64,000 nt of DNA from an uncultured Christensenella sp. (lineage in GTDB: Bacteria > Bacillota > Clostridia > Christensenellales > Pumilibacteraceae): NCBI GenBank assembly GCA_910585955.1, contig CAJUGC010000007.1:6320-70319 (forward strand). Reading direction: 5' to 3'. Shown here in pieces: positions 13,402 to 61,618 of the stretch (positions within the stretch are counted from its first letter, which is position 1; each line of letters opens with the position of its first letter). Under the pieces are notes generated by a model. The model saw only the letters and a program-made list of their open reading frames with translations, was not told where the DNA came from and searched no databases. Made by a program: the position numbers and the translations under genes.

Positions 13402-13437
13402 GCTTGAGTTTATTGATCTATTGCCGCGATATGTCGC

Positions 13438-14012: not shown

Positions 14013-14015
14013 CGT

Positions 14016-14843
14016 CTACTTCGATTTTTCTTTAGGAGGTTTCCAGCAATAAATGCGTTTGTTTTTATCAAGCTCGTTTATCAATGCCATTTCCTCATCG
14101 GCAATCTCAAAATCAAAGATATCTATATTAGCCGCCAAATGCTCGGGATCGGTCGATTTGGGAAAAACAACATTACCCTCTTGAATATGCCAACGAAGAA
14201 TAATCTGCACGACGCTTTTACCGTACTTTGCCGCCAACTTCGCAAATATCGGCTCGGAAAGCAACGCCTTATCTCCGTGAGCTATAGGATACCAGCTTTC
14301 CAATACGATACCGTACGGTGCGAGACGTCTTTTAAGTTCCGTCTGCCTGAAATACGGATGACATTCGACCTGCATTACCGACGGCTTAACGTCTATTGCG
14401 TCGAGAAAATTTTCCAGCCTCGAATCCTCGAAATTGGAAAGCCCTATGCTTTTGACCTTTCCCGACAAAAGAGCTTTTTCGAGATCTCTCCATGCTCCCG
14501 AATAGTCGTATGCCTGCCTATGTAAAAGCAACAGATCTATGTATCCTATGTCGAGGCGTGAAAGCATTTTATCTATGGCTTTTGCGCTTTTGCCCTCGCC
14601 GTACTCGTTTATCCACAGCTTAGATGTGACCCATATGTCTTCTCGCTTTATCCCGCACTTTCCGACAGCCCTTCCCACGCCGCGCTCGTTGCCGTATATG
14701 TGAGCCGTATCGATATGCCTATACCCCATTTCAAGAGCCTTAAGGCAGGTCTTTTCCGTCTTTCTATCGCCACGAATCATAAACACTCCGAGTCCGAACT
14801 GCGGCAATTTGTTTCCGTCGTTTAAAGTAACGTATGGCTGCAT
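14016..14843 (-). CDS. Aldo/keto reductase (2,5-diketo-D-gluconate reductase-like)
   Basis: 275 aa. LNDGNKLPQFGLGVF, GYRHIDTAHIYGNE, LWINEY, IGLSNF and VVFPKSTDPEHL are classical AKR signature blocks. Confidence 0.9.
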   Translation of the reverse strand: MQPYVTLNDGNKLPQFGLGVFMIRGDRKTEKTCLKALEMGYRHIDTAHIYGNERGVGRAVGKCGIKREDIWVTSKLWINEYGEGKSAKAIDKMLSRLDIGYIDLLLLHRQAYDYSGAWRDLEKALLSGKVKSIGLSNFEDSRLENFLDAIDVKPSVMQVECHPYFRQTELKRRLAPYGIVLESWYPIAHGDKALLSEPIFAKLAAKYGKSVVQIILRWHIQEGNVVFPKSTDPEHLAANIDIFDFEIADEEMALINELDKNKRIYCWKPPKEKSK

Positions 14844-35500: not shown

Positions 35501-36465
35501 TCGAGGTTGATTATAATAGGACTGTCCGCATTTTCGCCTATGGTAAGATAAGCGTCGATGTCAGTGGGAACAAACGGCTCGAGCGCGGTCTGCGCCTGAG
35601 TGGGAACGCTCTCGTAGTTGTTGAGATCGAGTACGATATCCGTTATACCGGCATATCTGACCTTAACAAAGAACGAACCCGACGCGCTGACGCCGCTTCT
35701 TAAATTTATATTTATCTCTTTAAAGTAAAAATAGTTTACTCCGTCAAAGACCACGTCGTCTATACTGAAATCATCGGGCGGAGAAAAATCTTGACGAGTG
35801 GGAATATTGAATTCGTTGTTTCCGAGAGGCGTGGTATTGACAAAACCGTTGCTCATTACGGAATAAGCCTTGAATTCGGGATCTTTACCGAATACCGCCA
35901 TTGTATCCGTGGCGTTCAAGATCTTATCGTATTTAGCCGTAATTCCCGCAGCATTGCTTTCCTGAATATTATTCAAAGAAAGCGTGCAAGAAAGTCCTTT
36001 ATATGTCGCGTTTATTCCCGTATCCGTAAGTTCGAGCTCGACGCCGTCCGTAGCGCAAGAAATCGTTTCGCTGTTGCCGTCCGCATCCGTAAGCGTCAGA
36101 TTTGTGAGAAGTTTGAGCATTTCCGTGCTCGTATTTGCGGCGTTTTTAACAAATGCAAAATACGAAAAATCGTCCGAGGGCACGGCAAACTCGCAACCGT
36201 CGGACAATAAATATGTATTATAATCGGTTTTCGTAACATTAGAAACTCCATCGAGAGCGTTTGCCTTCAGATAGTACGGAGGATATTCTCCCGCTCTGTC
36301 CGTGTTTACCGAAAGAGCTATGCTTGTCGGATTTTCCACAGTCGCGGCTTCGGCATTTGTAAGCCGCGCAAATTGCGACGTCGCCGTAAAACCGATTGCC
36401 GACATAACCAATGCCAAAACTATGCCGACAAATGCCAAAACACTCTTTTTATGCTCAACTCTCAT
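17515..36465 (-). CDS. Giant (6316 aa) YDG/MBG-type repeat cell-surface protein (putative adhesin) with a signal peptide and a C-terminal TM anchor
   Basis: The ORF runs 18,951 nt without interruption. A GGAGG RBS lies 7 nt upstream. The N-terminus KKSVLAFVGIVLALVMSAIGFTATS...AEAA looks like a signal peptide. The C-terminus is VSVLSTMTVAAGALLVVMLVRRKKLGY. The body is many divergent repeats of about 90-100 aa carrying ..(V/I)YDG.., ..(I/V)YG(D/E).., ..VG(S/T)Y.. and NYx(I/V/L)..G.(L/F)x(I/V) patterns, plus recurrent N(Y/F)xW motifs (NYKW, NYEW, NYIW, NYVW, NYMW and others). Confidence 0.9.
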   Translation of the reverse strand: MRVEHKKSVLAFVGIVLALVMSAIGFTATSQFARLTNAEAATVENPTSIALSVNTDRAGEYPPYYLKANALDGVSNVTKTDYNTYLLSDGCEFAVPSDDFSYFAFVKNAANTSTEMLKLLTNLTLTDADGNSETISCATDGVELELTDTGINATYKGLSCTLSLNNIQESNAAGITAKYDKILNATDTMAVFGKDPEFKAYSVMSNGFVNTTPLGNNEFNIPTRQDFSPPDDFSIDDVVFDGVNYFYFKEININLRSGVSASGSFFVKVRYAGITDIVLDLNNYESVPTQAQTALEPFVPTDIDAYLTIGENADSPIIINLDYDRAPLENGFYRNGLGKYKIYYYEKGSTVPSISGKTDEELLQDETHTGGNELPTYMTSIVGTIRILYVVEANGKDQTNSVVACKDFDVSDIDILPAAIMAPTLNGVTALDWKKFEQSYVKSNGSDIGENLYGGYGAEIPVSLPVGYTDLWGFLLGREVKMTVLRGAETVGEYGYEYNGGNIQNVKIENGVSFAETADGSQYLVAENAGNYTVRFEIVGPDYKWDTAVGASSDTLLSYSVTVNPMKGSATLGIAKGVDEEGAENTVATFNYGSLLKTNGDIGYSIKYQPIDTELAWIFVDYDGTSSSWTSGIGETAGDATETEFEYSFLYYGKSTNGLYDVPASAPTSSVPTTPGTYYAIIKVEAFGNYAEAQSEPVEFIIKRQAIAFSWKYNLSGTPNYKSAPIYNAGKHDPSDYIYIVNESSGEVLASTDWNFYTDDTFATVLTDYQPIVAGKHTLYLKLSEEKSDLYEWSPETVSGIDDGIFEAGDSGAGKATLYFEIEKYVGNDLGVSISGWTYEDNANEPVDSAPTYYKEIKHIFVEKDVYDTAKTAADALSGDDRGFVAKYIITNSLTFTTDAPVNAGDYFVLAYITSEYGENSDDFTSYNYCEAAKGFTVDKKGVVKPTLGMVDFTFDKNAQTVELLNYDGTNMTVSISAALPGNTSVSADSVLGKLTATNADTYTITVKIAAEYFKNHKWDDPSVSGDTFSFTWTIKPYTLKSIGRTLEKESEYSSSKQTVVLSDDANASDEFFDYSLINASVSGNPYINGVLDTNKSFISTSLLSQDANKVWTFGATYAGKYVVELSLNDTNYIWDTNARSYELTFDITPVKLGANNVDWGTEFSYIYDGLEHKPAPLFKELKGSDALTASVSVKNGEEAVARVTEVGNYVMTLDDMSGANLTGILDGMDYNIAYGYVMPETAENVTYHAFAITSALLLAPTFTDDVVEYNGSAFDIIDYIEDYAKNYIIGDVAQIKFTAYKNGTEAVGGNEPQDTLSLTDVVWQSIASDKATIGSYTVVVTLRDPENYKWKAKSDDSVGTDNAPVSLTFKITPALVDFVLSQDASEEKPYVVGYDGVEHDFIDIIQNYVGIENHITVSGGKHTDVNRAAFGDAVNSYEVTVGLDDKTKYNYVWADGSSDPSQGYNIADKTYFMRVDPAALEVDWADLEQTYSGSYLSPTASVSNHFEVEDNKSLVLSLEYLEGKDNTGTSGGLANVTDAGYYTAYVVGLTGEGAENYKIDFSSAAAVKPKANFTIIRAAVVKPTIETALGAGNSLGEYDKSEHDVVIKNYDSARMSYAANAHDVRGKDVGSITVPHSADDSNKKITVSVKRAGDYFVTFTLSDGKNYCFEDGSTAPDAENDNTVTLDFKLERKAVNAPTLSRSTTREAGKIFVPVLYSTYGETVADKKYSEAKDAVSSVDFDLGGDWVVSANIVYGNVTSDAVGIYDITLTLSLLTDDESIYDYAFVKEEVDENTMSTLGIEDTLLDFETVLKVQYRITGSVFELEFTIQSADGTAVAEWTYGDDVTGFRFHTDSVIPSDYVPAQREAVYYVYNEDDKSYAAYTGETVSTGSDDITNKADFFAALPKSAGRYRAAVIYRTGDSTGNGVYEYEQRYIVEFAIEKKEVAFDWQSSEVNGVTYDAVENMFAAIYDGNSHMGFAAVTNSQYGDTLGLQIGLAGDAMDNPVDVKLDADKNATYYDIEIKSITGEAAANYVLPTSGLQSKLTIDKRSVTLNAGDASHIFGSKITSDGANLNIDGANLVRITDGDFVASDNISLDSFAVTAKKSDGAYVLYNTSVGNYKTVITPRAELTNYDITYVDGVFDVEQKVIEVQWNSDKFVYDGTDQFANYNGKFVWYEDVDANKVALESVDISGQDTIFKRAGRYDFAVTAVSDANYRLAVSGESEYDSLTRSIEMQKRTVNIAAKDVTTIYGDVVGSYPLGWVYVEGTDKFVEDGGIEIESGNSAPSVLSFGFASTAVGTSSVGSYETYLVYNGGNFTGQITLDDFTVNVEKGAHTIEKYELKETDIVWNESSFVYNANDRTTQTLGLATYADRGDGSTHELLLAAVSESGAEVEFKNAGDYTLAVSSLQSDSTANLKLPDGYDLAWKSADKYTIAKREVEISVEDSESVYGEKIGSEKRVWNYVSTVKFCDDDENAGIDGFTSDINIRVAGGEGVDDERTDVGFCDLELFHGNDKFIATGGKAEFANYSVVFTNGEITVRPRELKIDVKNLEHIYGSDEVFDTPLVSRLAEISASQIVGGGLASFDTIVDVLTATTPANPDGRVRAEAKNGYAVTLSLNTDAKGDNYIVKFKPVSAAGDTLAEVILNSDVLNESAQKTSEVAAYYNIKTASFEDIQVVSYSESGIAYDGAVHAAISSKSVSYYGTTKSEARKTATENVSDNNLGWAYALSTETVAPDASAFASEIPEVLNAGTYYLYYRISADNHETEIGYVTVTVTKKEVVLSVSANIYYGENTPDLQYFNYDFDGLGENESITFASASGGKVSFKAVRAIGGKELPLEGWIDGTLDISTDYIAGDSVGTYRVKVENLGFAAGNYVFNIAPEEQNIVSVEKLPVIITVGDIEDSYWFNGAGSGRDLNVRAENGFTLTTGVKDIAGNSITDVYAGDKSVGTHEYEKLFFIKSGAFVYDANGNRTDMNGVGTYTVTYERRELGGVNGNYDLSFTLGSHKVVPADIELTLKGYNADYDENEHDLIVSTASDGVLASPADKERPSGASILDFKYALIKVSEGDGKIEDYAPSDENGYDLDSVPKLIDAGTYYVYYMISGENHNTVTGSLTAEIAKVYNGWKTDKEYAIAKSYWSYGSYDLSANEETKPEANFKRVPSGGETLPEISLFGGEDFATLVGEYSMSGEHWSWLTDTISGETYNNGQLLGAGVYKVVVSVDGNDNFYDLESEYEITVNKAELSLAPKAATITYGDALDFDSLKFEIGSFKNGEDFSSEIRNEVLRLEAGYGNDESFTHYAAGFENGSVSNTYYIRFVGGVQSILEGMEVLKNYAPVLETATLTVNKKPLSIHINNAENKYNFNISSGEKEDPAAIDTDLTSAENKDAAGYYYDGENRPFGAEIPVHIVTDAFIYDESGNLAVSTKDVGKYPIYAEENKYAANYDISYEGSYSGGTKGTFEIKQAELNINVSVWHSIDGSETEASVAASGREYVGTYSGYAWEFKAECVNADFDDVTFRTVYRSALSGIDYTGVAPKNAGTYYLRFIANNNNNYTFAGSADDYVMKVNPLSVAVDMRLYEDASGTEALTGSVEYKQSPYAVKLSSVPEAVPDPDREDFENFINISYRKDNESVSSPLNAGSYLATATVTELAYGNYVLDETSRNFQFTITKKKINVVTTIGDTSAVYDGNDITFSLAGCSSLTDPNRENGYVMTYEIEYADNLGSAPSKFGDGHFAAGTFGFGAVNAGSYAVKVKLEFTDDYEWIGFAGDTVTLNYTITQKSLYVKASNEKIEYGDRFDGSAGSTHNLLYKGLVQGHIGQQGTQGNEIPSAGIIGVGKEIDISSVTYAAVDSSANAHTTASAAGEIFTIIPNSDEFVSNNYNIVVNHSSFGSGTLTVVGRKITVEIKDASRTYTGSKHDEWIQSELEASLASGGNTGKYIILKSGDLTGNEGNDTVADLGITLKIGGGNETDCSLKGFAISADYTNKNYDIAFTGSWSTGTDGTFTIEKKTLEVFVGVSGDEGKAHSVVYGDALIYNATYSGFVPQGNVGETGNLSALSWLFLSGSISYKTVLTAGSGAAEYTIGESHVGDEYKVTIDDITLQNYKFDINEGTIAILPRTIGASLTAKTVTFAADNAHLPVVQNAPVAFTNTVFGFASEIFAYSYDGVLKDGTAVSSLTDVSRAGDYTVTLNLITNENGEYDYLFAGSVASYTFADRYEIAKQVVRLEWTTQTFEFAEGRADENTIPNYDGVILDRSGIMLGGAVDMEIDGGIRIGEGGKGLVLPVIKSGNYSIVLSLKPDYANDYILVNRDSPQSQTVTLSFNTFVSEINLTISMSGWTYGDTAVEPKLKATEAGGKDFALDENATIAISYALLSEETIASLDSKNLWNMSLTQNDINSLDGTRTYGVSPVNAGAYMVRATGSVDYTYESSDTGTTETKRIPVQAWFAFRIAKDKIDVPLFDEEGADKVYGGSLLSATVSGYREGIMSMTYAEAFELKAGTITLHTSSAGAHELTVSLINDTNYEWNEFTPSEHTKLENGNVIITWTVTAGTNTVSGLTVQTGIYYGETYDSTGVSALFGGVITYMYASRDTDSTDPSMVPEGLDWKVGFPKGVGKYWIGATSQGGEDDYASETAYAACEIVKAVLAVRPKDTALTYGEAFTIEGNYELVGAMYDDLPVLGGLPSATVSNENGNYFVGADVGEYAIRISGLSGVAVSGELANNYSVTFDGSETATLTVNKKSITVIINSQEATYDGTSDHALDESMGEKNGWYVLNNALVTNETTQALDTLGIALSLPDNCMNVGNYPISYKFTSVGKNDNYDITVTPSGRFVINSLTLTVTEATAGGTLVYNRGNAPTGNLSLTLKYVYDGSEQTLTVDSATASTTILNENETFVLRYSGVSNNGATYSNSPSLPLFAGSGYTVGLVSGTNSGNITLIGASAAFAVEKYTLDGALIQNAASLKNVLKVAYTGHEYSIDGDVANRVVTLGSALYPLPSGVDKLFTVTASDKEVSAGTYGFTLTLENAVFHNYKWASVEVASREFTFEIEKAANVVRWTGANPGELSWVYDGTLHEGGLGVTADFGQETKIYLVSSTENGTYEEFDSVRHTRKGTYYVKVRIPETNDYTEATTSEYKVCDISARRINLVFAGDDEYIGGVYGDTSMSARDYDFTDAVTGLADFDDLKAGISVSIVYVGSSFGGVASDGLMPTLAGRYKVRISLSGESAHNFELANATSGYVEGNYIVARQAVYGDRIVVESFDFDGFAHTAEDSVKKNEFYGVKYELDGEAIENINASHYSFVLKLIDSDNFYWFTHTEDQTAETINKFRSFSYHIKTVDVVNAELDKLSFVKNGVKVEVSESDLNSETMLWTYKDVISDVTATVVVTVRTESGREFELTNRTYGTFDSFIELQYYSENYAQWGRLLPEDAGIHKIRVNIERTVNINAPTSTSEYDFGVEKFALETPTLTDTGTGWIYTGNRLTAYMDGSFDNDVMRVSFSDVSTEGGRFTVGAVKAGSHEITVDIRSSHTRNYMWKDGSSSLVIVWKIEKARNGLKHFDDISKIYGEEYASEAIADFGQVQFAYYDKDGKLLAGAPRASGDYFIEAYVDGSDDYYGVAASRVKLHISKKEIVVLPTSGSVVYGNEYTHDDRGFLVEDGSFEYGDGYAVISGAPVYYTAYRAGNAVGSMQTIAISGVGTLEAENYTFKAGENLASLTVTKRPITILIGDQSASYNGEILLDETKWTIHESTPKFGSDIIAITLSIEGGLPTSVGRYRIIGEAVSGGNNSNENYDITFRDGTYVVNALIITVTGIDVPSGLVFGETAGAKATFTVEGVDGALESGAFVGRVEILVVYYDDTTGITYGSMPASAGTYRAMIELAPASDGNNNQNYRLGGTLSKVFTIARRAIDETSIENSAKAAGLLDSVYSGFLRVPSADAIARIEGFAPIDGMYTVSCAGGINVGEYSLLLTFTSDFVRNYKWLHSEGSVASLTYTITKNMDNTVSAKFENADSATFEYDGNSIEKRLESRLVVNALLGGDNVFFEYASVSGDTLGEYSRAVPSAVGDYRVRAVVRDTTDYSGAVSTALRFEITPRRITADFAECGGMYMSAIVPASAIFAYADESFSDDRLLKTAEHSVYYYGTSYDGTFSHTLEDGITVVPVKAGAYKAAIVLQNENFVFVSQGKETNTIETDFIVARKRLELPAQDGGKYEVDDTKYTLTPSGFDETVMTISGNSANKNGDYTAIVSLKDKANYEWANGTSDDFEMSWTLKKDAPVDFIATVSVLSTMTVAAGALLVVMLVRRKKLGY

Positions 36466-41325: not shown

Positions 41326-42702
41326 TTATGCTTTCTGTTTTAAGTATTTGTCTATATATTCGTCCTTGATACGCTTGAGTTCGCTTCTCGGAAGAATGGA
41401 GAGCAGTTCCCAGCCGAGGTCGAGCGTCTCTTCTATGCTGCGATTGGTATTGAAGCCCTGCGAAACATAACGGCGCTCGAACTCCTCGGCGAACTTAGCG
41501 TACTTCTTGTCTGTCTCCGTAAGAGCCGCGTCGCCGAGTATGGCTGAAAGCTCCTTGGCTTCCTTGCCGAGCGAGTATGCGGCAAACAACTGGTTCATCG
41601 TGTCGGCGTGATCCTCGCGCGTCTTGTTTTTGCCTATACCTTTGTCCTTTAATCGGGACAGGCTGGGCAAAACGTCTATAGGTGGGTTGAAGCCTTTTTT
41701 GTAGAGCTCGCGCGAGAGGATTATCTGCCCCTCGGTTATATAGCCAGTAAGGTCCGGTATCGGGTGTGTCTTATCGTCCTCGGGCATGGTAAGAATGGGG
41801 ATTTGAGTTATCGATCCTTTCTTGCCGCGAATACGTCCGGCACGCTCGTAGAGCGAAGCGAGGTCGGTATACATATAACCCGGATAGCCGCGGCGACCCG
41901 GTACTTCCTTTCGAGCCGCAGACACTTCGCGCATTGCTTCCGCGTAATTCGTTATGTCGGTCATTATGACGAGCACATGCATTCCCTTGTCGAATGCGAG
42001 ATATTCCGCCGCCGTAAGCGCCATACGCGGCGTCGAGATACGCTCTATGGCGGGGTCGTCGGCAAGGTTCATAAATAGCACCGTGCGCTCGATCGCGCCC
42101 GTCTTGCGAAAGTCGTCGATAAAGAATTCGGCTTCCTCGTAGGTTATGCCTATGGCGGCGAACACTACGGCGAAGCTTTCGCCCTTGCCGAGCACTTTAG
42201 CTTGGCGTGCGATTTGAGCCGCAAGGTTGGCGTGCGGAAGTCCGCTCATCGAAAACACGGGGAGTTTCTGACCGCGAACGAGCGTGTTGAGTCCGTCGAT
42301 CGCCGAAACGCCGGTCTGAATAAACTCATCCGGATAGTCGCGCGCGGCGGGGTTTATAGGCTGACCGTTGACATCCATGCGCTTTTCGGCGATTATGTCC
42401 GCGCCGCCGTCCTTGGGTCTGCCCATGCCGTCGAACACGCGTCCGAGCATATCGATGGACACGGGAAGTTCTATGCTCTTGCCGAGAAAGCGCGCCTTTG
42501 CCGTGCTTATTTTAAGCCCCTGGCTGACTTCGAAGAGCTGAACGAGCGCTTTGTCTCTGTTTATTTCGAGCACTTTGCCCTGTCGTATTTCGCCGTTTGC
42601 CTGCTCTATTTCGACAAGCTCGTTGTACTTTACGTCCTCTACGCCCTCAACGAGCATCAAGGGACCTACGACTTCACTTATACTGCGATATTCCTTTAAC
42701 AT
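41326..42702 (-). CDS. ntpB: V/A-type ATP synthase subunit B
   Basis: 458 aa. [29 protein letters not shown] and [15 protein letters not shown] are typical of the non-catalytic B subunit. The start overlaps the ntpA stop by 1 nt. Confidence 0.95.
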
Positions 42703-44462
42703 CAGTCACTCTCCTTGCCTGCCGCTTCGGCAAGTTCGCCGCTCATCTGCGCGTCGATACCGTCGAATTCGGCTATGCGCTCCTCGGGAATATACTTGCT
42801 TCTGCCTATCTTCTCCCTCGCGCTTATGCCGAGCACTTTGTCGAGCGCCGCTCCGCCCTCGAGCGCCGAGAGCGAACGTCGATAGCAGTCGATGATAAGT
42901 TTGAGCATACGATACTGCTTGTTAAGCGACGTGTAAGTATCCACCTCGTGGAAGGCGTTTTGGTGGAGATAGTCCTCGCGCACGGCTTTCGCCGTCTCCA
43001 TGGTAAGCCTGTCGCGCGGTGAAAGCGCGTCCATGCCGACGAGGCGGACTATTTCGTCAAGCTGCGCCTCTTCCTGAAGTATGCGCATTGCCTCGGCGCG
43101 ATAGTTGTTGAAGTCTCGCGCGACATTCGACGTATACCAAGACGCAAGACGGTCGGCATATAGGCTATAGCTCGTAAGCCAATCTATAGCGGGGAAATGC
43201 CGCTTATACGCAAGGCTTGCCGACAAGCCCCAATAAACTTTTACTATGCGAAGCGTCGCCTGCGAGACGGGTTCGGACATATCGCCGCCAGGAGGAGAGA
43301 CAGCGCCGATTGCCGTGACGCTCCCCACCCTGTCGCCGCTTCCGAGCACGGACACCTTGCCCGCGCGCTCGTAGAACTCGGCAAGACGGCTCGAGAGATA
43401 TGCGGGATAGCCTTCCTCGCCCGGCATTTCCTCGAGTCTGCCCGACATCTCGCGCAGAGCTTCCGCCCAACGCGACGTGGAGTCCGCCATAATCGCGACG
43501 TTGTAGCCCATGTCGCGGAAATACTCGGCTATCGTTATGCCCGTGTATATGCTCGCTTCGCGCGCCGCAACCGGCATATCCGAAGTGTTGGCTATTAGCA
43601 CGGTGCGCTTCATGAGCGGCTTACCCGTCTTGGGGTCGCTGAGCTCGGGGAACTCGTTGAGAACGTCGGTCATTTCGTTGCCGCGCTCGCCGCAGCCGAC
43701 GTAGACTATGATGTCCGCGTCCGCCCACTTCGCGAGCTGGTGCTGAACTACCGTCTTGCCCGAGCCGAACGGTCCTGGAACTGCCGCGACGCCGCCTTCG
43801 GCTATCGGGAACAGAGTGTCTATTACGCGCTGCCCGGTTACGAGCGGGCGGGCGGGCGGAAGTTTGGACTTGTAAGGGCGACCGCGACGCACCGGCCACT
43901 TCTGCGCCATACGGATATTGACGGTACCGTTTTCGTCCTTTAAGGTGGCTACGGTCTCGTCTATGTTGAAACTGCCTTCTTCTATGCTTGCAACGACGCC
44001 GCTCTTTCCGGGAGGAACCATTATGCGGTGCTCGATGACTTCGTTCTCGCGGACGGTGCCTATAATGTCGCCGCCCGTCACCTTATCGCCCACTTTTACC
44101 GTCGGCAAAAAGTCCCATTTCTTTTTATGATCGAGAGCTGGCACTTCGAGTCCTCTTCCTATCCTGTCGCCGCTCTTTTCCACAAGCATATTCAAGGGGC
44201 GCTGTATGCCGTCGTAAATGCTTTCGATAAGTCCCGGTCCGAGCTCGACGGACAGCGGCGCGTTTGTAGACACAACGTCTTCGCCCGTGCCGAGCATACT
44301 CGTCTCTTCATAGACCTGAATGGACGCTTTGTCGCCGCGAAGCTCTATGACTTCGCCGATGAGTCGGCGCGACGAAACGCGCACGACGTCGTACATCTTT
44401 ACGTCCGCCATGCCTTCCGCAACTATGAGCGGTCCGCTGACCTTAACAATTTTACCTTTCAT
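42702..44462 (-). CDS. ntpA: V/A-type ATP synthase catalytic subunit A
   Basis: 586 aa with [18 protein letters not shown], the Walker A motif GPFGSGKTV, and [22 protein letters not shown]. Confidence 0.96.
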
Positions 44463-50168: not shown

Positions 50169-50993
50169 TTAACGCTCCACACCTCTTACGGTTTTAATAG
50201 CACAGTCGTATACGTCGCCGCACGCATATTCGAGGTAAGCGGCAACTTTGCGGTAATCGTCGAGCGAGCCGCCCCACGGATCGGGCACATCCGCCCCGCC
50301 GGTAATACGCGCAATCGTTGTGACGTTCGGCAGACCTCCTACGGTGCGAAAATGCCCCTCGGTCATGCACACAACGAGATCGCTCGATTCCGCCATTTCT
50401 CGAGTAAGTCTGCGAGCAAAGTGATTCACGTCTTTTATTCCCTTTTCGAAAAGCGCCCGTTTTGCCTGCTCGCTCATGTCGTCGCCCGTAAGTGCGGACA
50501 GACCGGCTCCTTGAACGTCGAAATATTCGCTTTCGCCCTTTTTCCTTACATACTCCGAAAAGATGTACTGCGCCATTGCCGAACGGCAGGTGTTGCCTGT
50601 GCACACAAACAGAACACTTATTCTTCTCGGAGGCCGAGACGACTTTGCGGAAGCGGGTTTTTCTTCCGACGCCGAATTTTCCTCTTTTTCTTTCCGGTCA
50701 GCCGGTTTTGACTCCGCAGGCTTGACCTCGTGCGAAAAATTCGAAAGTTTCTCCTCAACTTTCTTTTCGTCCGATGATTGTCCGCCAATTGAAGAAAGAA
50801 CCGACTTATCGCAAGGCAAAGACAGTTTTTGTTTTACGGGTTTCATTGCGGGCTTTTCAAATTCCGACACCGCCTCCGTAACACCCACCGAAAGCGTAGG
50901 CTTTTTTTCTTTGCCCCTTTTCTTTTTAGGAGCGGGAACGCTCGTCACCGTAACCGCCTTATTTTTTGCGGATTTTTTTCTCCTGTCTGCCAC
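50169..50993 (-). CDS. Low-molecular-weight protein phosphatase (YwlE-like Tyr/Arg phosphatase) with a roughly 125-aa low-complexity N-terminal extension
   Basis: The catalytic core starts at ISVLFVCTGNTCRSAMAQ, which is the CX5R(S/T) P-loop, and a DPWG-type Asp loop (VPDPWGG) follows. It is preceded by a K/S/P/E-rich segment (MADRRKKSAKNKAVTVTSVPAPKKKRGKEKK...). Confidence 0.85.
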   Translation of the reverse strand: MADRRKKSAKNKAVTVTSVPAPKKKRGKEKKPTLSVGVTEAVSEFEKPAMKPVKQKLSLPCDKSVLSSIGGQSSDEKKVEEKLSNFSHEVKPAESKPADRKEKEENSASEEKPASAKSSRPPRRISVLFVCTGNTCRSAMAQYIFSEYVRKKGESEYFDVQGAGLSALTGDDMSEQAKRALFEKGIKDVNHFARRLTREMAESSDLVVCMTEGHFRTVGGLPNVTTIARITGGADVPDPWGGSLDDYRKVAAYLEYACGDVYDCAIKTVRGVER

Positions 50994-55705: not shown

Positions 55706-55819
55706 ATGATCGACGTAAGAAAGATATTCGAAAGCGAAACCGACCCGGACGGTTGGTACACGGGCGCGCCCGAAGGCGGCGAATACGAAGAACCCGTCCA
55801 GGACGCAGACGACCTTTAA
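55706..55819 (+). CDS. Possible 37-aa acidic small protein (below the cutoff of the ORF track)
   Basis: Sequence: MIDVRKIFESETDPDGWYTGAPEGGEYEEPVQDADDL. The ATG at 55706 is preceded by GGAGGG with a 6-nt spacer. It fills most of the otherwise empty gap between ppa and the protease gene. Confidence 0.4.
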   Translation: MIDVRKIFESETDPDGWYTGAPEGGEYEEPVQDADDL

Positions 55820-55828: not shown

Positions 55829-56605
55829 TTAACCGAAATACGGAAGATATTTGCGGATAAAATCGATCACTATATCCGACGGTATCTCGTATTTCATGCC
55901 GTCGGCGTGCTCGTTTTCACTGAGCATTGCCGCCGCAACATGTACGCCTATAACTTTGCCGCGCTCGTTGAAAACAGGTCCGCCCGAATTGCCGCCGTTA
56001 GTCGCACAGTCTGTCATGATGCGAGGACGTCCTTCAACAGTACGTCTGCGATCGCTTACTATGCCGCGAGTTATGCAGGTGCCGTGACCGAGCGAATTGC
56101 CTATGACGAACACCGGCTCACCCGTGCGGACGTTTGAAAAGTCCTCGAACTCGAGCACGGTCGCTTTTTCGGGCACGCTTGCGAGCTTAAGGAGCGCAAG
56201 GTCGTCTCCGCGATAGTATTCTCCGCTTCCCGCCACGCTGCCCACGCCTATAACTCGAGCCGTGACGCGTTGACCCGCGATATTTACGTTGACGCTTCCG
56301 ACGGCTTCACTGCCGTTCAGAACAACATGAGCGTTCGTAATCCCGTAGCCGTCGCGCGTAATCAAAAGTCCGCTTCCCGAAAACACGCCTCTGTTGCTCT
56401 TCCAGCTTATCTCGAGCACGCCGCCGACCGTACTTTCGAAAATGTCTACTCCGTTCTGGTTATTGACGCTTGCCTGCGTGCGCGAACTTACCGCCGCCGC
56501 AACCTCGAAATCTTCGGCGGAAAACGCGGCTCCGCAAAAGTTACACTTATAATTGCCGCCTCCGAGGTCTTTACAGCTGCCGCCGCAGTTCTTGCAAGTT
56601 TTCAT
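55829..56605 (-). CDS. Trypsin-like (S1/HtrA-type) serine protease with an N-terminal zinc ribbon; no signal peptide, no PDZ domain
   Basis: 258 aa. The N-terminus MKTCKNCGGSC...YKCNFCG has a CxxC...CxxC arrangement. The catalytic triad context is TNAHVV (His), DDLALLKL (Asp) and GGNSGGPVF (Ser). An AAGGAG RBS is present. The gene starts 23 nt downstream of the AAA ATPase gene. Confidence 0.85.
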   Translation of the reverse strand: MKTCKNCGGSCKDLGGGNYKCNFCGAAFSAEDFEVAAAVSSRTQASVNNQNGVDIFESTVGGVLEISWKSNRGVFSGSGLLITRDGYGITNAHVVLNGSEAVGSVNVNIAGQRVTARVIGVGSVAGSGEYYRGDDLALLKLASVPEKATVLEFEDFSNVRTGEPVFVIGNSLGHGTCITRGIVSDRRRTVEGRPRIMTDCATNGGNSGGPVFNERGKVIGVHVAAAMLSENEHADGMKYEIPSDIVIDFIRKYLPYFG

Positions 56606-56628: not shown

Positions 56629-58728
56629 TTATTCGTTCGAGCCCTTCCACTCGAGCAATTTTTCTATGTCCTCGCTTTGCACCGAAGACGTGACTTTTTC
56701 GAATGCCGCGACTACGTCGTCGTTGCAAAGTTTCTTTTCTCCCGTTTTTATCGCACGCAAAGCGGATTGCTCCTCCGCTTTATCGAGAAGCGCTGTTATG
56801 TCCGAACCGTTAAAACCGTTTGACTTTTCGACTGCCGCCGCAACGTCTATGTCGTCGGATACTGCCACTATGCCCTTTTCGCGTATCTTTTCGATTCGAC
56901 GCATAAGCATATATTCGCGCGCGGGCGCGTCGGGCAATCCCACATACACGCGCGTACCGAATCGTCCCGGGCGAACGAAAGCGCTGTCTACATCCCACGG
57001 CTTGTTTGTAGCCGCTATAAGGAAGAGAATGTTGTCCTTCTTTTTGCCGTACGATTCTATGCCCTGAAGCTGGGACAGAAGCTCGCTTCGAAGCTGTTTT
57101 GCGTATTGCGATTTCGTAGACTTGGGGGAAATCGAATCCATTTCGTCAAAGTAAATGACGGCGCACGGAAATTCACGAGCCTGTGCAAACAGCGCACGCA
57201 CGGCTTTTTCCGTATTGCCCACGCCTTGATTGAGAAGATCGGACGGCTTTACGGAGCAGAACTTTGCGCCTATCTCGTTGGCTATCGCCGCCGCTATCAT
57301 GGTTTTGCCCGTGCCCGGAGGTCCGTACAGCAATAGTCCTCCACCGCTCTTTCTGACGTAACCCTCGAATACCTCCGGGTTTTGCAGAGGCAACAGAACT
57401 TTTACGCGCACGACTTCCTTTACGTCGTCCAGCCCTGCAATATCGTCGAAATTTATTACGGGCAGACTGTCCCAATCGAATTTGTATTCGCTTGCCGGTC
57501 CCGTGCCTTCTTCGAGCACTTTCTCCTCGGGCGTAAGCGCTTTGTCATCTTTAGGCGCCGGCTTAGGCGGCTCGGACTTAGGCTTAGGCGGCTCGTTTCT
57601 TTGAGAAGTCTCTTTGGACGCGACTGGCTCGCAATAGCGTACCTCGGACGGAAGGTCGTCTATCGTAATGGTAGTCATAGTATCGTTGTCGGGGTCGGAA
57701 AGTCTCGCCACTCTTCCCGACTGACGCGTGACGATGTTCTCGAAAAGGTTGCGCACGTCTCTTCCGTTTCCGAAATTCTCGTTCCTGTTCTCATAGAGAC
57801 TGCGGAAATAGTCCTTGAGCGCAAAGCGAGCGTCCGCATCCACCGCATAATGATTTTTCTTGCAAGTCACATCGAATATTCCGTATAACTCGCTTCCGTT
57901 GTAATCGTCGAAGTTTATGAACGTCTTAAAACGCGAGCGAAGTCCCGGATTCGACTTTATGAACTTCTCCATGGGCTTGTCGTAACCCGCGACTATGACG
58001 ACGAGATTAGAGCGTTTGTCCTCCATTTCCTTTAAAAGCGTATCTATAGCTTCCTGCCCGAAATCGTTTGCACCGCCGTTTGCAAGCGCATACGCTTCGT
58101 CTATGAACAGCACGCCGCCGTACGCCTTTTTGAGTACGTCTTTTGTCTTGACCGCAGTCTGTCCCACATAGCCCGCAACAAGCCCGCTTCTGTCCACCTC
58201 GACGAGCTGACCCTCCGACAGTATGCCGAGCGCACAATAAATCTGCGCCATAAGTCTGGCGACCGTCGTCTTACCCGTGCCCGGATTGCCCGTAAATACG
58301 AGATGATACGACATATCGGGGACGGGAAGTCCTCTGTCTTTACGCATTTTAAAGACTTTTATTTGGTCTATCCAATCGCCGACTTTGCTTTTGACGGTAG
58401 AAAGGCCGACGAGAGCATTGAGACGAGAGAGCGCTTCCTCAAGCGAAATTTTTTCGTTTTTCACCGCAGTCACGGAGCTTGAAGTCTCTTCCTCTTGTAC
58501 CGCCTTTTTCTCTACGCCTATGCTTTCGGCTTTCTCGATAAGACTCTTTGCACGGTTGAAACGCGCCTTTTGCAGCTCGCCTTCGCTTGCCTTTGCCATT
58601 TTCAGCATTTGCTCTGCGGCAAGCATGAAATAGCGTTTTGCCAAGAACTTATCGCCTTTCTCGAGACAAGATTTTGCCTTGCCGAAATACAAGTCGAAAG
58701 TCTCGCTAAGCATACTCAGATTATCCAT
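56629..58728 (-). CDS. Tandem AAA+ ATPase: MIT-like N-terminal helical domain, SpoVK/CbbX-type AAA domain, Pro/Lys-rich linker, Vps4/FtsH-type AAA domain
   Basis: 699 aa. The N-terminus KAKSCLEKGDKFLAKRYFMLAAEQMLKMAKASEGELQKARFNRAKSLIEKAESI parallels the Vps4 MIT layout (...Y..A.e.fl......k....RAK...yLdRAEkL). D1 has LEEALSRLNALVGLSTVK and HLVFTGNPGTGKTTVARLMA, then VLFIDEAY. D2 has FDDIAGLDDVKEVVRVKVLLPLQNPEVF, LLLYGPPGTGKTMIAAAIANE, VIYFDEMD and ATNKPWDVDSAFVRPGRF. Confidence 0.85.
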   Translation of the reverse strand: MDNLSMLSETFDLYFGKAKSCLEKGDKFLAKRYFMLAAEQMLKMAKASEGELQKARFNRAKSLIEKAESIGVEKKAVQEEETSSSVTAVKNEKISLEEALSRLNALVGLSTVKSKVGDWIDQIKVFKMRKDRGLPVPDMSYHLVFTGNPGTGKTTVARLMAQIYCALGILSEGQLVEVDRSGLVAGYVGQTAVKTKDVLKKAYGGVLFIDEAYALANGGANDFGQEAIDTLLKEMEDKRSNLVVIVAGYDKPMEKFIKSNPGLRSRFKTFINFDDYNGSELYGIFDVTCKKNHYAVDADARFALKDYFRSLYENRNENFGNGRDVRNLFENIVTRQSGRVARLSDPDNDTMTTITIDDLPSEVRYCEPVASKETSQRNEPPKPKSEPPKPAPKDDKALTPEEKVLEEGTGPASEYKFDWDSLPVINFDDIAGLDDVKEVVRVKVLLPLQNPEVFEGYVRKSGGGLLLYGPPGTGKTMIAAAIANEIGAKFCSVKPSDLLNQGVGNTEKAVRALFAQAREFPCAVIYFDEMDSISPKSTKSQYAKQLRSELLSQLQGIESYGKKKDNILFLIAATNKPWDVDSAFVRPGRFGTRVYVGLPDAPAREYMLMRRIEKIREKGIVAVSDDIDVAAAVEKSNGFNGSDITALLDKAEEQSALRAIKTGEKKLCNDDVVAAFEKVTSSVQSEDIEKLLEWKGSNE

Positions 58729-58804: not shown

Positions 58805-59377
58805 TTATATGCCCGAATCTATTTTCTTTTTCAGGGCTTCGAGTTCCTTGTCTATCATGCTTTCGGTCATGCCGTCCGCCGCCGCGGTATTCGTGAACAA
58901 CGCCTCGATCTCGGCGTTTTCGCTCTCGCTCGACATCGTGCCCGTCGAAAAAGCGGACTGTGTGTCGTCCATGAAATTCTCGAGCTGTTCCGTCTGCATT
59001 TCCATACCCATCATGGCTTCGTTGAACTGCTTTTGAACCTTTAAGAAATCTTTTTCTTTCGTGATTTTCATCATATCTTTGGAAAGCGAACTCATGCCGT
59101 CCAAAAACTGCACTGTCATCTGCGACATATCCTTCATCTGCGAGGTTATTTCGAAATTAAGCTTCATCTCATACACTCGCTTTTGCTGCGTGAGCGTCAT
59201 TTTAAGTCCGGACAGCGCAAGATTATACTGAGCGGTCAAGCCCTTTTGCTTCGCCGTCTTGCCGGCTTCTATGTAAACTTTTTTTTGCTCCTCGAGCTTT
59301 TGTATCTGCTTGTTCATGGTGTTGATCGTCTTATTGATCAACATCTTCTTTTCAAGTTCTTTTTTCGTATTTGCCAT
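58805..59377 (-). CDS. ESCRT-III-superfamily protein, CHMP2/3 (Vps2/Vps24)-like, with a C-terminal MIM1-like motif
   Basis: 190 aa, all-helical. It lines up by eye with CHMP3: IQKLEEQKKVYIEAGKTAKQKG against IRDIQREEEKVKRSVKDAAKKGQ, and LSKDMMKITKEKDFLKVQKQFNEAMMGMEMQTEQLENFMDD against STEVMKAMQSL..IQATMRELSKEMMKAGIIEEMLEDTFES. An acidic linker follows. The C-terminus ESMIDKELEALKKKI fits (D/E)xxLxxRLxxL(K/R), apart from Glu at the Arg position and Ile at the first Leu. Confidence 0.6.
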   Translation of the reverse strand: MANTKKELEKKMLINKTINTMNKQIQKLEEQKKVYIEAGKTAKQKGLTAQYNLALSGLKMTLTQQKRVYEMKLNFEITSQMKDMSQMTVQFLDGMSSLSKDMMKITKEKDFLKVQKQFNEAMMGMEMQTEQLENFMDDTQSAFSTGTMSSESENAEIEALFTNTAAADGMTESMIDKELEALKKKIDSGI

Positions 59378-59518: not shown

Positions 59519-60112
59519 TCAGATATCGGTTGCGTCCGCCTTTACCTTAGGCGTTTCGGAGAACATCTCCTCCTCGTCCGCGACCTGTTCCTCTTCCTCG
59601 AACATTGCGAGAAGCGCGTTGTCTTGCTCGTTCATGCCGTAAATAGTCTGATTTACGTCGTACGCCTCTTCTATGCCTTTAAACGTCTCGTCCGCAGACG
59701 TCAGCACATCCTCTGCGGCGACTCTCGTATTCAGCGTCTTATTGAGGAACTTCGCAAGTCCTTTCTGATCGGCAAGGAGATTCCCGAGCGACGCTTTCGA
59801 CGTGTTTTTGAAAAACTTGTTGTCGTCTATGGCGTTTTTGAGTTTTTGAAGCATTTGGATATTGTACATTATGTACATATCGCGTTGCACGCTCTGTTCA
59901 CGTTCGGCTTTTAAGGCATTTATCTTTTTAGCGTACAAAAGTTTAAGACTTTTATCCTTTTCGGCTTTGCCCTTAGCCATCATGTCGTCAATCTGCTTCT
60001 GACCGGAAAGAAGCCCGTCCTCGATTTCTTTGGACTGCTGTTCGAGCTCGCAAATAGCCTTTACGACTTCTTCACGCGTCAACTTATCGTATTTGCTTTT
60101 AAAAGGCCACAT
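59519..60112 (-). CDS. ESCRT-III-superfamily protein, Snf7/CHMP4-like
   Basis: 197 aa. It starts MWPFKSK (yeast Snf7 starts MWSSLFGW). EEVVKAICELEQQSKEIE...GKAEKDKSLKLLYAKKINALKAEREQ follows the Snf7 alpha1-alpha2 hairpin pattern (AI..L.....L.kk......a....gnk..A...LkkKK..E.q). The C-terminal tail is acidic (EEEEQVADEEE). Confidence 0.55.
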   Translation of the reverse strand: MWPFKSKYDKLTREEVVKAICELEQQSKEIEDGLLSGQKQIDDMMAKGKAEKDKSLKLLYAKKINALKAEREQSVQRDMYIMYNIQMLQKLKNAIDDNKFFKNTSKASLGNLLADQKGLAKFLNKTLNTRVAAEDVLTSADETFKGIEEAYDVNQTIYGMNEQDNALLAMFEEEEQVADEEEMFSETPKVKADATDI

Positions 60113-60123: not shown

Positions 60124-60450
60124 CTATATCTTAGCGTTTCTGTCTGCTAACGTGAGCTTTATCTGCGTCAACAGATTTTCGGCCTTCTTGGTAGTCTCGC
60201 CGTCGCCTTTCGTGAGAGCTATACGCATATCGCCTATAAGGTCTCTGATTTTCTTATCGCAAGACTGGACTTCTTTCGTCTCGGTTGCTATAAGATACTT
60301 TAGCTTTTCTTGAAGCTCTTTGAGCTGATCTGTCAAATATTCGTTACCGTCCGCAAGAACCAAAAGAGCTTCGATCGCCTTATTGTTCTGCTCGACGAGT
60401 TCCTTGTCTTCGCGCGTCTTTTCCGACGCTTTCTTTTTAAAGAAAAACAT
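60124..60450 (-). CDS. Small (108 aa) all-helical protein of unknown function within the ESCRT-III-like operon
   Basis: An AAGGAG RBS lies 7 nt upstream. The gene sits 12 nt after the SPFH gene and 11 nt before the Snf7-like gene. It is charged and helical (KELVEQNNKAIEALLVLADGNEYLTDQLKELQEKLKYL...). Confidence 0.65.
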   Translation of the reverse strand: MFFFKKKASEKTREDKELVEQNNKAIEALLVLADGNEYLTDQLKELQEKLKYLIATETKEVQSCDKKIRDLIGDMRIALTKGDGETTKKAENLLTQIKLTLADRNAKI

Positions 60451-60462: not shown

Positions 60463-61521
60463 TTACTTTAATTTGTTTCCGCAGGTTGCGCAGAACATTG
60501 CGTCGGCTTCGTTGTTGCTCCCGCACTTGGGGCAAGCGGTCTTTTCTTTCACGAGCCTGTTGCCGCAATTAGGACAGAATATAGCGGCCGCAGTATAGGG
60601 CTTTCCGCAATTCGAGCAAAAAAGCGACGCGCCCGACGGTATGCCTGCCGCACCGGCGCCCACACCGACGACCGGCGCATGACCTATGACTTTCAAAACG
60701 TCGTAATACGCGTTCTTGTCCTGAAGCTCGAGTTGACGCAAATACTTATCGCGCTCCCATTGCTTGTCGTCGAGACGTTCGATCTCCGCAAGATATTCTT
60801 TAAGCTTCTTTTCTCGTTCTTCCTTGAGTCGCTTTTCGGCAGCTGCGTTTTCCACAGCCGCTTTGTCGCTCGCGTCTATTCCCACCCACTCGATTATGAA
60901 GTCGGTGAGACCAACGCCCCAACTCTTTTCAAATTTAGGCGAAAGTATGCCGCCGACTGTTATACCGATGTCCTTTTTATGCGCGTCGAACTGATCGTAT
61001 GTAAGCTTTCTTTCGGCAACGGCTTTCAGAAATGCGTCCGAAAACTCGTTTACCACTTCAGCCGAAAAGCGGGTTTGGAAATCATCCTTGTCGAACTCGC
61101 GGCGAACGCCTACTACTTTACGGAAAAACTGTTCGGGATTTGCTATCGTCACACCGAACTGACCGCGCGCACCGATGTTGACAACATGGTTGCTCGCTTC
61201 ATCCCTGTAGGTAAAACGTTGCGGCGTGCCCCAGAATACGATGAGACTGCAATCTTTGGGCATATAGATTACGTCAACCGAAAAGCCTTTCTTCCAAGCT
61301 TTTATTTCCTTACGATCGTCAAACACGTCGTAAGCTCCGCTCTTGTAAAAACGCGCGTCTCCGCCGCCCTTTATTATATATGCGTTGTGCGTATAGGGCA
61401 CTTCTATCATCGCGTGTTTGTCTCTTATCTCATCCGCCACGCGAACAAAGAGCACGCTGTTATCGTTTATGTCGGCATTGCAATGATTCTGCTCGAACTT
61501 GACAATCTGCGGTTTTCCCAT
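60463..61521 (-). CDS. SPFH-superfamily protein of the YdjI ('virion core protein-like', COG4260) type with a C-terminal double zinc ribbon
   Basis: 352 aa. The N-terminal 230 aa (…YIIKGGGDARFYKSGAYDV…VFWGTPQRFTYRD…VNIGARGQFGVTIANPEQFFRKVVG…WGVGLTDFIIEWVGIDAS) resemble YdjI-type SPFH domains. A coiled coil follows (KRLKEEREKKLKEYLAEIERL). The C-terminus is CSNCG..CPNCG...CPKCG..CATCG, four CxxC pairs. Confidence 0.7.
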   Translation of the reverse strand: MGKPQIVKFEQNHCNADINDNSVLFVRVADEIRDKHAMIEVPYTHNAYIIKGGGDARFYKSGAYDVFDDRKEIKAWKKGFSVDVIYMPKDCSLIVFWGTPQRFTYRDEASNHVVNIGARGQFGVTIANPEQFFRKVVGVRREFDKDDFQTRFSAEVVNEFSDAFLKAVAERKLTYDQFDAHKKDIGITVGGILSPKFEKSWGVGLTDFIIEWVGIDASDKAAVENAAAEKRLKEEREKKLKEYLAEIERLDDKQWERDKYLRQLELQDKNAYYDVLKVIGHAPVVGVGAGAAGIPSGASLFCSNCGKPYTAAAIFCPNCGNRLVKEKTACPKCGSNNEADAMFCATCGNKLK

Positions 61522-61589: not shown

Positions 61590-61618
61590 ATTATAATAGA
61601 TTTTTCGGAAATAGTCAA
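61590..61618 (-). promoter_or_regulatory. Sigma-70-type promoter of the SPFH / ESCRT-III-like / AAA / protease operon
   Basis: On the minus strand: TTGACT (61618-61613), a 17-nt spacer, then TATAAT (61595-61590), about 70 nt upstream of the SPFH ATG. Confidence 0.5.

Follow-up and report, generated by a model that had tools for sequence, protein, structure and literature searches.

The stretch of DNA analysed here (the window) covers 64,000 nucleotides (nt) of an uncultured Christensenella sp., at positions 6,320 to 70,319 of contig CAJUGC010000007.1 (assembly GCA_910585955.1). On its minus strand lies a cluster of six same-strand genes, separated by gaps of 12, 11, 141, 76 and 23 nt, which on the basis of this spacing appear to be co-transcribed. 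The fifth gene of this cluster, the subject of this study, encodes an ATPase in which a predicted MIT-like head is followed by a SpoVK/CbbX/EccA-type AAA domain (D1), a linker and a classical AAA domain (D2). The gene located 76 nt upstream encodes a Snf7-like protein of the ESCRT-III superfamily. The features of these two genes on which the argument depends are as follows.

56629..58728, minus strand: open reading frame (ORF) of the two-AAA ATPase, 699 amino acids (aa), ATG start
58519..58728, minus strand: MIT-like three-helix bundle, ATPase residues 1-70, from an AlphaFold2 (AF2) model and Foldseek
57646..58458, minus strand: D1, residues 91-361, SpoVK/CbbX/EccA-type AAA with AAA_lid_6
57550..57591, minus strand: Pro/Lys-rich inter-ring linker PPKPKSEPPKPAPK, residues 380-393, from the sequence
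56647..57480, minus strand: D2, residues 417-694, classical-clade AAA, nearest to D2 of Cdc48/p97
58805..59377, minus strand: Snf7-like ESCRT-III superfamily protein, 190 aa, from Pfam Snf7, PDB, AF2 and Foldseek
58829..58864, minus strand: helix at the C-terminus of the 190-aa protein resembling MIT-interacting motif 1 (MIM1), E172-S-M-I175-D-K-E178-L179-E-A-L182-K183, from a pattern in homologues

An earlier note on this DNA had proposed the same succession of domains, including the Pro/Lys-rich linker, and the motifs that it listed (NRAKSLIEKAESI, LNALVGLSTVK, VFTGNPGTGKTTVARL, the linker motif, FDDIAGLDDVK, LLLYGPPGTGKT and ATNKPWDVDSAFVRPGRF) are all found in the ATPase ORF. Its placement of D1 with SpoVK, CbbX and EccA is borne out by Pfam (AAA and AAA_lid_6), by NCBIfam (SpoVK TIGR02881, E = 2.4e-89; EccA TIGR03922, 1.6e-81; CbbX TIGR02880, 6.2e-73) and by the nearest solved structures, namely CbbX (1.4e-55, D1 query residues 11-273 against chain residues 16-280) and EccA1 (2.5e-53). 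D1 possesses an intact Walker A motif (residues 147-154), the pore loop GYVGQT (186-191), a Walker B motif (206-212) and the motif NPGLRSRF (260-267). It stays under every equivalog cutoff, with 298.8 vs 422.95 bits for SpoVK, 245.5 vs 459.25 for CbbX and 274.6 vs 466.65 for EccA. By these profile scores D1 is classed as a member of the SpoVK/CbbX/EccA clade, yet in none of the three named families.

Regarding D2, which the earlier note had assigned to the Vps4/katanin/FtsH type, the classical clade stands while the closer affiliation has to be revised, D2 being nearer to the second ring of Cdc48/p97 than to Vps4 or FtsH. Indeed, its best solved relatives are the D2 rings of Cdc48/p97/VAT, and its NCBIfam matches are CDC48 (2.3e-55), PAN (6.1e-55), CdvC (2.9e-51) and FtsH (8.9e-48). 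The Walker A (469-476) and Walker B (524-530) motifs and the arginine fingers (DSAFVRPGRF, 581-590) are intact; in pore loop 1, NQGVGNTE (500-507), a glycine replaces the expected aromatic residue. The tail of the protein, SSVQSEDIEKLLEWKGSNE, looks by eye like a Vps4_C motif; in precomputed annotations Vps4_C matches some two-AAA homologues and is not in the list for the cluster of the window protein itself.

The 120 listed homologues of the ATPase (662-720 aa, 70-100% identity, 95-100% query coverage) show which of these features are maintained. The Walker A, Walker B and arginine-finger motifs of both rings are kept in all or nearly all of them, the D1 pore loop reads GY[VI]GQT in 114, and the D2 pore loop reads NQG[AV]GNTE in 120 of 120, the aromatic residue being lost. 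Those that carry a name are annotated merely as 'AAA family ATPase' and come from Clostridia metagenome-assembled genomes (MAGs). A scan with the 190-aa family over one genome per GTDB species gave 52 related loci, and the N-terminal domain of the ATPase is conserved in 47 of them. With these 120 homologues and this conservation, the ATPase gene is therefore real and under selection.

The MIT-like head and the Snf7-like neighbour

The earlier proposal of an MIT-like domain at the N-terminus of the ATPase is supported by structural modelling. The AF2 model, built from a 19-sequence alignment, has a mean predicted local distance difference test (pLDDT) score of 90.8 and consists of three helices (residues 2-24, 27-47 and 50-69). 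When it was compared with the PDB using Foldseek, the well-fitting matches were overwhelmingly MIT domains, with template-modelling (TM) scores of 0.67-0.79 and root-mean-square deviations (rmsd) of 1.3-2.9 Å. They include the MIT domains of VPS4A (1yxr; TM 0.73/0.75, rmsd 1.4 Å), MITD1 (4a5x; TM 0.73/0.79, rmsd 1.3 Å) and calpain-7 (TM 0.78), and further matches were obtained with the Sulfolobus Vps4 MIT domain (2w2u/2v6y), VPS4B, yeast Vps4, katanin p60 and spartin. TPR arrays, the other fold that had been envisaged for this domain, fit poorly (TM 0.34-0.38). The head is hence modelled as an MIT-like three-helix fold.

Sequence comparisons are less telling. The profile of the head family finds as its top PDB match, across the three helices, the 74-aa chain 2mpk, 'Chitin synthase 1' (E = 0.027), which we take to be the MIT domain of an oomycete chitin synthase. 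Pfam MIT matches one of 17 head family members (E = 0.0026), and a phmmer search of residues 1-95 against the PDB returned a designed protein alone (E = 0.84). For the window head itself, Pfam gives TPR_8 and DUF1771 at E = 0.13. Sequence by itself is not decisive for the identity of the head, and the MIT assignment rests on fold and context.

Of 1.84 billion representative proteins searched with the head profile, only 178 match at E<=0.001. If fragments and a small number of multi-stretch repeat proteins are set aside, most of these are about 366-402 aa long, with a class of 433-564 aa and four proteins of 704-796 aa. An AAA domain is present in all 55 scanned representatives of at least 360 aa, and AAA_lid_6 in 11 of them. 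Because the head is so rare and is accompanied by AAA in every representative scanned, it is a narrow, AAA-dedicated module.

The 190-aa product of the adjoining gene points to the ESCRT-III superfamily by several routes. Pfam Snf7 (PF03357) matches 16 of 22 homologues (best E = 2.1e-5). The best PDB match to the single sequence is CHMP2A (residues 10-139 against 11-143, E = 0.24), although the profile of the family found nothing relevant in the PDB. In the AF2 model, a long alpha1/alpha2 hairpin is followed by two helices (residues 2-45, 48-105, 108-145 and 151-187), and the top nine Foldseek matches are all ESCRT-III structures (CHMP2A-CHMP3, CHMP1B, IST1-CHMP1B, Asgard ESCRT-IIIB and CdvB), followed by Vipp1/PspA. 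The charge distribution, with a basic N-terminal and an acidic C-terminal part, has the polarity of ESCRT-III proteins. Taken as modelled, the protein thus unites the hairpin, the shorter helices, the polarity and the C-terminal MIM1-like tail of the ESCRT-III fold.

This tail deserves particular attention. The terminal helix, which comes after a variable linker of low pLDDT, is strictly conserved in the family as TExxI[DE]KELExLKK[KR]M. Scored as [DE]xx[ILMV]xxX[ILM]xx[LVI][KR] within the last 30 aa, the MIM1-like pattern occurs in 152 of 164 unique homologues and in 0.85% of the shuffled tails used as control. The helix is proposed, from this pattern, as the docking site of the ATPase head.

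Operon partners and motor forms

Besides the ATPase and the Snf7-like protein, the operon encodes four proteins and is framed by sites resembling a promoter and a terminator.

61590..61618, minus strand: promoter-like site TTGACT-17-TATAAT, 11/12 matches, 69 nt before the first gene (consensus match only)
60463..61521, minus strand: SPFH (Band_7_1) protein, 352 aa, with a coiled coil and two C-terminal zinc ribbons (Pfam)
60124..60450, minus strand: 108-aa helical protein, N-terminus MFFFKKK, syntenic in 35 of 52 loci
59519..60112, minus strand: 197-aa helical protein, N-terminus MWPFKSK, syntenic in 50 of 52 loci
55829..56605, minus strand: zinc-ribbon-headed trypsin-like serine protease, 258 aa, with no PDZ domain (Pfam Trypsin_2, 1.8e-26)
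55794..55812, minus strand: terminator-like hairpin just 3' of the last operon gene (pattern match only)

A gap of 352 nt separates the operon from the upstream gene, and scanning the window for Rfam families and tRNAs gave no match. The SPFH protein is recognised by Pfam (Band_7_1, 2.7e-15; Zn_ribbon_3, Zn_Ribbon_1 and DZR), contains four CxxC motifs (residues 302, 316, 330 and 344) and has tblastn matches in 45 of 52 loci, some of them weak or confined to the zinc-ribbon region. By its resemblance to B. subtilis YdjI/SamI, it is predicted to be a membrane-proximal scaffold. The 108-aa protein has no significant match in Pfam, NCBIfam, PHROGs, PADLOC or a PDB profile search and no similarity to its neighbours in hhalign. 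The 197-aa protein, with a basic N-terminal part, a strongly acidic tail and a conserved IYG..DD.LLAMFE motif, matches ESCRT-III proteins in size and polarity.

The small helical proteins of the operon share aromatic/basic N-termini: MWPFKSK and MFFFKKK in the window, and MG[ILF]FKSK in distant Snf7-like homologues (L040 7977-8582; L049 and L050). The window copy of the Snf7-like protein begins instead with MANTKKE. MG[ILF]FKSK resembles the N-termini of eukaryotic ESCRT-III proteins, and like these the aromatic/basic N-termini may be membrane-insertion motifs.

The sixth gene is the most variable. The protease of the window has candidates for the complete catalytic triad in TNAHV (His), DLALL (Asp) and GNSGGP (Ser). 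A gene with a CxxC...CxxC head, the zinc ribbon (ZnR), is located directly 3' of the ATPase gene in about 31 of 46 loci. Among 24 sixth-gene bodies that were scanned, 10 are ZnR-trypsin proteases as in the window and 8 are long ZnR-TIR proteins (TIR_2), which carry TPR-like repeats and C-terminal transmembrane segments; others contain TPR, LRR or pectate-lyase-like adhesive domains. In L052, a gene for a BrxL-like Lon ATPase is inserted between the ATPase and ZnR genes (10001-11440, 11437-14559), and in L040 the ZnR-region gene spans 10014-13817. This variety hints at a defence or signalling output.

A further observation concerns the same slot in loci L053-L055 (8106-8700; homologue P0014, a close relative), where, in place of the ZnR protease, there are only an ORF of 99 aa and an LRR_5 fragment of 89 aa. 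On either side the chromosomal genes (DUF2383, ABC transporter, Sua5) are unchanged, indicating that the sixth gene turns over in an otherwise stable locus.

Nearly all of the 52 loci belong to MAGs whose labels place them in uncultured Clostridia (Christensenellaceae, 'Clostridiales', Eubacteriales, Lachnospiraceae), the few others being labelled Bacilli, Bacillota or Acidiphilium; one of the loci (L001) is 99% identical to the window. The gene order SPFH-ZnR, 108 aa, 197 aa, Snf7-like and ATPase is kept in almost all of them. In the lineage of the window, the operon is embedded in conserved chromosomal synteny, with DUF2383 upstream and the ABC transporter and Sua5 genes downstream. An origin from a mobile element was considered and rejected in view of this synteny and of the tblastn search of the Snf7-like protein against phage and plasmid collections, which gave no match.

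In each of the 47 loci where the head was found, it belongs to the ATPase encoded beside the Snf7-like gene, and it is present whichever motor comes after it. Three forms can be distinguished. Most loci, including the window, have the SpoVK-type and the classical AAA domains in tandem (form A; 646-729 aa among complete ORFs). In form B, the classical AAA domain stands alone (375-390 aa in L040-L050, 489 aa in L052). In form C, the SpoVK-type domain stands alone (371-437 aa), as seen in four MAGs (L022 8616-9731, L036 8561-9874, L037 8561-9745 and L038 5511-6647). Since the ZnR-headed gene begins only 18-58 nt downstream of the ATPase gene in the form C loci, the classical ring has truly been lost there.

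Judged by its domain content, form B has the architecture of Vps4 and CdvC. It aligns with the NCBIfam CdvC model in one stretch from end to end (for L040, residues 8-373 against model positions 6-367 of 370), and CdvC is the top NCBIfam match of L052. Its pore loop, SKWVG[DE]SEK, retains the aromatic residue. Vps4_C matches 11 of 55 family representatives (best E = 1.8e-9) and is frequent in form B. Diversity is greater among the single-AAA proteins, and the tandem looks like a derived form.

Function, rival explanations and known systems

Altogether, the gene arrangement and domain composition make it reasonably probable that the ATPase powers a bacterial membrane-remodelling module similar to ESCRT-III/Vps4, in which the motor has been swapped or duplicated. 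With moderate confidence, we consider that it would work like a Vps4, without filing it as a Vps4 orthologue. In the mechanism that we propose, the SPFH protein would organise a membrane-proximal platform, as YdjI does for PspA in B. subtilis, and the Snf7-like protein would polymerise on the membrane, perhaps along with the 197-aa protein. The MIT-like head could then dock on the exposed C-terminal helix of the polymer, and the hexameric ATPase would thread subunits through its pore and in this way extract or remodel them. In the two-ring form, D1 would be the translocating, substrate-engaging ring, since it keeps an aromatic pore loop whereas D2 has lost it yet keeps Walker A, Walker B and arginine fingers; D2 might serve as an ATP-driven assembly or regulatory ring, as do the degenerate rings of other tandem AAA enzymes. 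Form C, from which D2 has disappeared, fits such a role for D1. CbbX, for its part, pulls a C-terminal tail into its pore. The zinc-ribbon-headed protease, or the TIR protein in other loci, would represent a variable output or cargo module.

A number of results weigh against this membrane-remodelling reading. For the head, Foldseek E-values are weak (best 0.086, the MIT matches all >0.08), as is expected for a 70-residue helical bundle, and Pfam MIT (PF04212) does not match the window head even at an E limit of 10. For the head and the 190-aa protein taken together, Foldseek E-values lie between 0.05 and 1. The Snf7 matches are sub-threshold (14.6 bits and E = 0.027 for the window copy, vs a gathering score of 27.3 bits), and the AF2 model of the 190-aa protein is of moderate confidence, with a pLDDT of only 67.7. 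The MIM1 consensus, (D/E)xxLxxRLxxL(K/R), fits save at the Arg position, which is Glu in 150 of the matching tails. A charge swap on helix 3 of the head that would compensate for this Glu was considered and found no support: a by-eye alignment (YLDRAEKL vs LIEKAESI) with what we presume to be the VPS4A helix 3 sequence keeps the acidic residues. Similarity between the 197-aa protein and the Snf7-like family in hhalign is not significant (E = 0.11-0.17), albeit collinear over about 150 columns, and neither Pfam, NCBIfam, PHROGs, PADLOC nor a PDB profile search supports a relationship.

The motor itself raises similar reservations. Against the NCBIfam CdvC equivalog cutoff of 650 bits, the window ATPase is far under with 174.5 bits, and its single-AAA relatives, with 205-212 bits (211.7 for L040), do not reach it either. 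Among solved structures, the classical AAA module is nearest to the D2 rings of Cdc48/p97, nearer than to Vps4, so that the MIT and AAA combination could be an independent fusion and not a Vps4 orthologue. Finally, the variability of the protease and TIR partners suggests that the function goes further than membrane remodelling alone. The MIT and ESCRT-III assignments hence each consist of several weak, concordant signals together with strong synteny, no single signal being decisive.

An unlikely, albeit partly compatible, alternative places the sixth gene at the centre: the operon would encode an unfoldase with an effector, for quality control or anti-phage defence. The AAA enzyme would feed or activate the ZnR protease or TIR protein within an SPFH-organised membrane domain, comparable to FtsH in HflK/C cages or to the IetA-IetS ATPase-protease pair, with the ESCRT-III-like protein acting as a membrane-damage sensor or shield and not as a substrate of the ATPase. 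The recurrence of ZnR-headed trypsin-like and TIR_2 genes 3' of the ATPase gene, the BrxL-like gene in one locus and the presence of SPFH, AAA enzyme and protease in one operon all speak for it, as do the PADLOC matches of D2 and of a single-AAA relative to IetA (138-140 bits). Swappable effector domains are typical of conflict systems. However, the IetA match reflects generic classical-AAA similarity restricted to the AAA core (138.7 bits for D2), and the partner protease is trypsin-like and matches no IetS model; IetS is a subtilase. PADLOC found generic AAA (IetA, TRIP13) and protease matches in the operon and no system match. Furthermore, the protease/TIR slot is the least conserved part of the locus, whereas almost every locus has the head, the Snf7-like protein and the 197-aa protein. 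In the lineage of the window, the locus sits in conserved chromosomal synteny and not in a mobile island, and the phage and plasmid searches gave no match.

Somewhat more doubtful still is the explanation that the head lacks any specificity for ESCRT-III and acts as a generic helical or TPR-like adaptor, encoded beside the Snf7-like gene only because the two are regulated together under membrane stress. Pfam lends it some credit, as TPR_8 matches 6 of 17 head family members (best E = 0.0022) vs 1 of 17 for MIT. Three-helix bundles are also common, and the Foldseek matches of similar E-value include ribosomal S20, hydrolase N-domains and designed bundles. A generic adaptor is nevertheless difficult to reconcile with the far better fit to MIT domains than to true TPR arrays, with the scarcity of the head and its constant association with AAA in the representatives scanned, with the 47 of 47 head-bearing loci in which the ATPase stands beside the Snf7-like gene, and with the CdvC model aligning through the head.

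A role in spore morphogenesis, with the ATPase as a sporulation SpoVK paralogue that carries an additional AAA domain, is very improbable and was rejected: SpoVK is the best NCBIfam match of D1, but D1 is below the SpoVK cutoff with EccA and CbbX scoring nearly as well, the operon and head persist in sister lineages whose ATPase has no SpoVK-type domain, and no sporulation genes are present in the neighbourhood examined. The earlier note had also considered an already characterised SpoVK variant with no ESCRT-III-like neighbour; the sub-cutoff score and the adjoining Snf7-like gene speak otherwise.

Returning to the membrane-remodelling reading, it has to be confronted with the systems described so far. 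According to a 2025 review of prokaryotic ESCRT-III, a Vps4-like ATPase appears to be absent in bacteria, leaving the regulation of PspA/Vipp1 polymers unexplained (PMC7619361), and a survey by Makarova et al. (2024) reports in its abstract that archaea have identifiable ESCRT homologues and bacteria do not (PMC11188069). The same survey recognises Vps4 by an MIT domain or by ESCRT genes nearby (PMC11188069). By these two criteria the ATPase family would qualify as Vps4-like. By stricter tests it would not, because it is far below the CdvC cutoff, its AAA module is nearer to Cdc48 D2 and the window protein has two rings with a degenerate classical pore loop.

In the ATPase, as in Vps4 and CdvC, an N-terminal MIT-type bundle precedes a classical AAA domain, with a flexible linker after the bundle and a putative helix at the C-terminus, and the gene adjoins that of an ESCRT-III (Snf7-like) protein which ends in an amphipathic MIM-like helix. 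Vps4 and CdvC occur in eukaryotes, Asgard and TACK archaea and several euryarchaea, whereas the host here is bacterial. Unlike them, the window ATPase has one more ring, of the SpoVK/CbbX type, inserted between its head and its classical AAA. Pore loop 1 of the classical ring reads NQGVGNTE, where their single classical AAA domain has an aromatic loop, KW[LMV]GES. D1 has in common with CbbX, SpoVK and EccA the AAA and AAA_lid_6 module and the YVG/YIG pore loop, but differs by its fusion to an MIT-like head and a second AAA ring and by its operon. Cdc48/p97 and NSF likewise stack two AAA rings per chain, one specialised and the other degenerate in pore function; both of their rings are of the classical clade and their N-domain is a double-psi barrel, whereas the rings of the window ATPase come from two AAA clades and its N-domain is MIT-like.

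Among bacterial systems, one of the closest is the pairing of PspA with an 'Inactive-Classical-AAA + Classical-AAA' dyad, reported by Aravind, Ravi and colleagues in Clostridium sp. BNL1100 (e.g., AEY64320.1/AEY64321.1) and other bacteria and proposed to carry out ATP-dependent membrane remodelling (PMC11237479). There too, a Firmicutes ESCRT-III-superfamily gene adjoins a two-AAA ATPase. As described, however, the partner is PspA, the N-terminal AAA is an inactive classical domain and no MIT head is reported, whereas in the window the partner matches Snf7, D1 is of the SpoVK/CbbX type with intact Walker A, Walker B and pore loop, and the head is MIT-like. The same study describes Vps4-like ATPases transferred to some bacteria, with a TPR-6TM gene in place of snf7, and the PspA and Band-7-ZnR operon of B. 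subtilis (PMC11237479).

In B. subtilis, YdjI is required to bring PspA to the membrane (PMC8581546). The pspA-ydjGHI (samGHI) operon resembles that of the window in encoding a cytosolic Band_7_1 SPFH protein with an ESCRT-III-superfamily protein. It differs in having no ATPase, PspA instead of a Snf7-like protein, and the membrane proteins YdjG and YdjH, which are absent from the window operon. The archaeal 'Meth_adaptin' ESCRT loci encode Vps4 and ESCRT-III with a protein combining SPFH, coiled coil and zinc ribbon, and another zinc-ribbon component (PMC11188069). The SPFH, coiled-coil and zinc-ribbon protein is shared with the window operon, in which the adaptin-appendage, GOLD and ProX components were not seen; an evolutionary connection, for instance by transfer between gut methanogens and Clostridia, is conceivable. 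Searches of the open-access literature retrieved neither a bacterial operon of Snf7-like and MIT-AAA proteins nor an MIT-SpoVK-AAA tandem, and the papers searched describe an MIT-headed ATPase with an ESCRT-III-like gene only in archaea and eukaryotes. The operon is a real, conserved and so far uncharacterised bacterial module.

A further-reaching version of the membrane-remodelling reading can be put forward tentatively, as a possibility that falls somewhat short of an even chance. Gut Clostridia would own a genuine ESCRT-III/Vps4 machine, either ancient or acquired from archaea, composed of a Snf7-clade polymer, an MIT-headed AAA disassemblase and an SPFH scaffold. Its head would have been re-coupled to a SpoVK/CbbX-type motor, from a single classical AAA through the tandem to the SpoVK-type domain only, and the machine would serve protease- or TIR-wired membrane repair or immunity. 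If true, a genuine clostridial machine would overturn the view that bacteria lack a Vps4-like ESCRT-III regulator. The locus makes it testable whether ATP-driven ESCRT-III remodelling existed, or arrived, in bacteria. Moreover, three natural versions of the motor (classical, SpoVK-type and both) pose the question of how interchangeable AAA motors are behind one recognition head, and the recurrent SPFH and protease or TIR partners tie ESCRT-III-like polymers to membrane microdomains and possibly to immunity.

Other features of the window

Elsewhere in the window, three regions are worth reporting. A single ORF of 6316 aa (17515-36465, minus strand) has an N-terminal signal or transmembrane segment and a C-terminal transmembrane anchor followed by RRKK, with a high content of Thr, Ser, Gly, Val, Asp and Tyr. 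Pfam searches with three pieces of about 2000 aa gave no match at E<=1e-5, and the ORF presumably encodes a giant protein of the cell surface, from a family not yet described.

The ORF at 50169-50993 (minus strand) begins with a low-complexity extension of about 130 residues, rich in Lys, Ser and Glu, followed by a region containing VLFVCTGNTCRSAMAQ, which by eye resembles the signature of a low-molecular-weight phosphatase. Finally, positions 42001-44000 have a G+C content of 0.579, vs about 0.48 elsewhere, and this region lies over two long minus-strand ORFs (41326-42702, 458 aa; 42702-44462, 586 aa).

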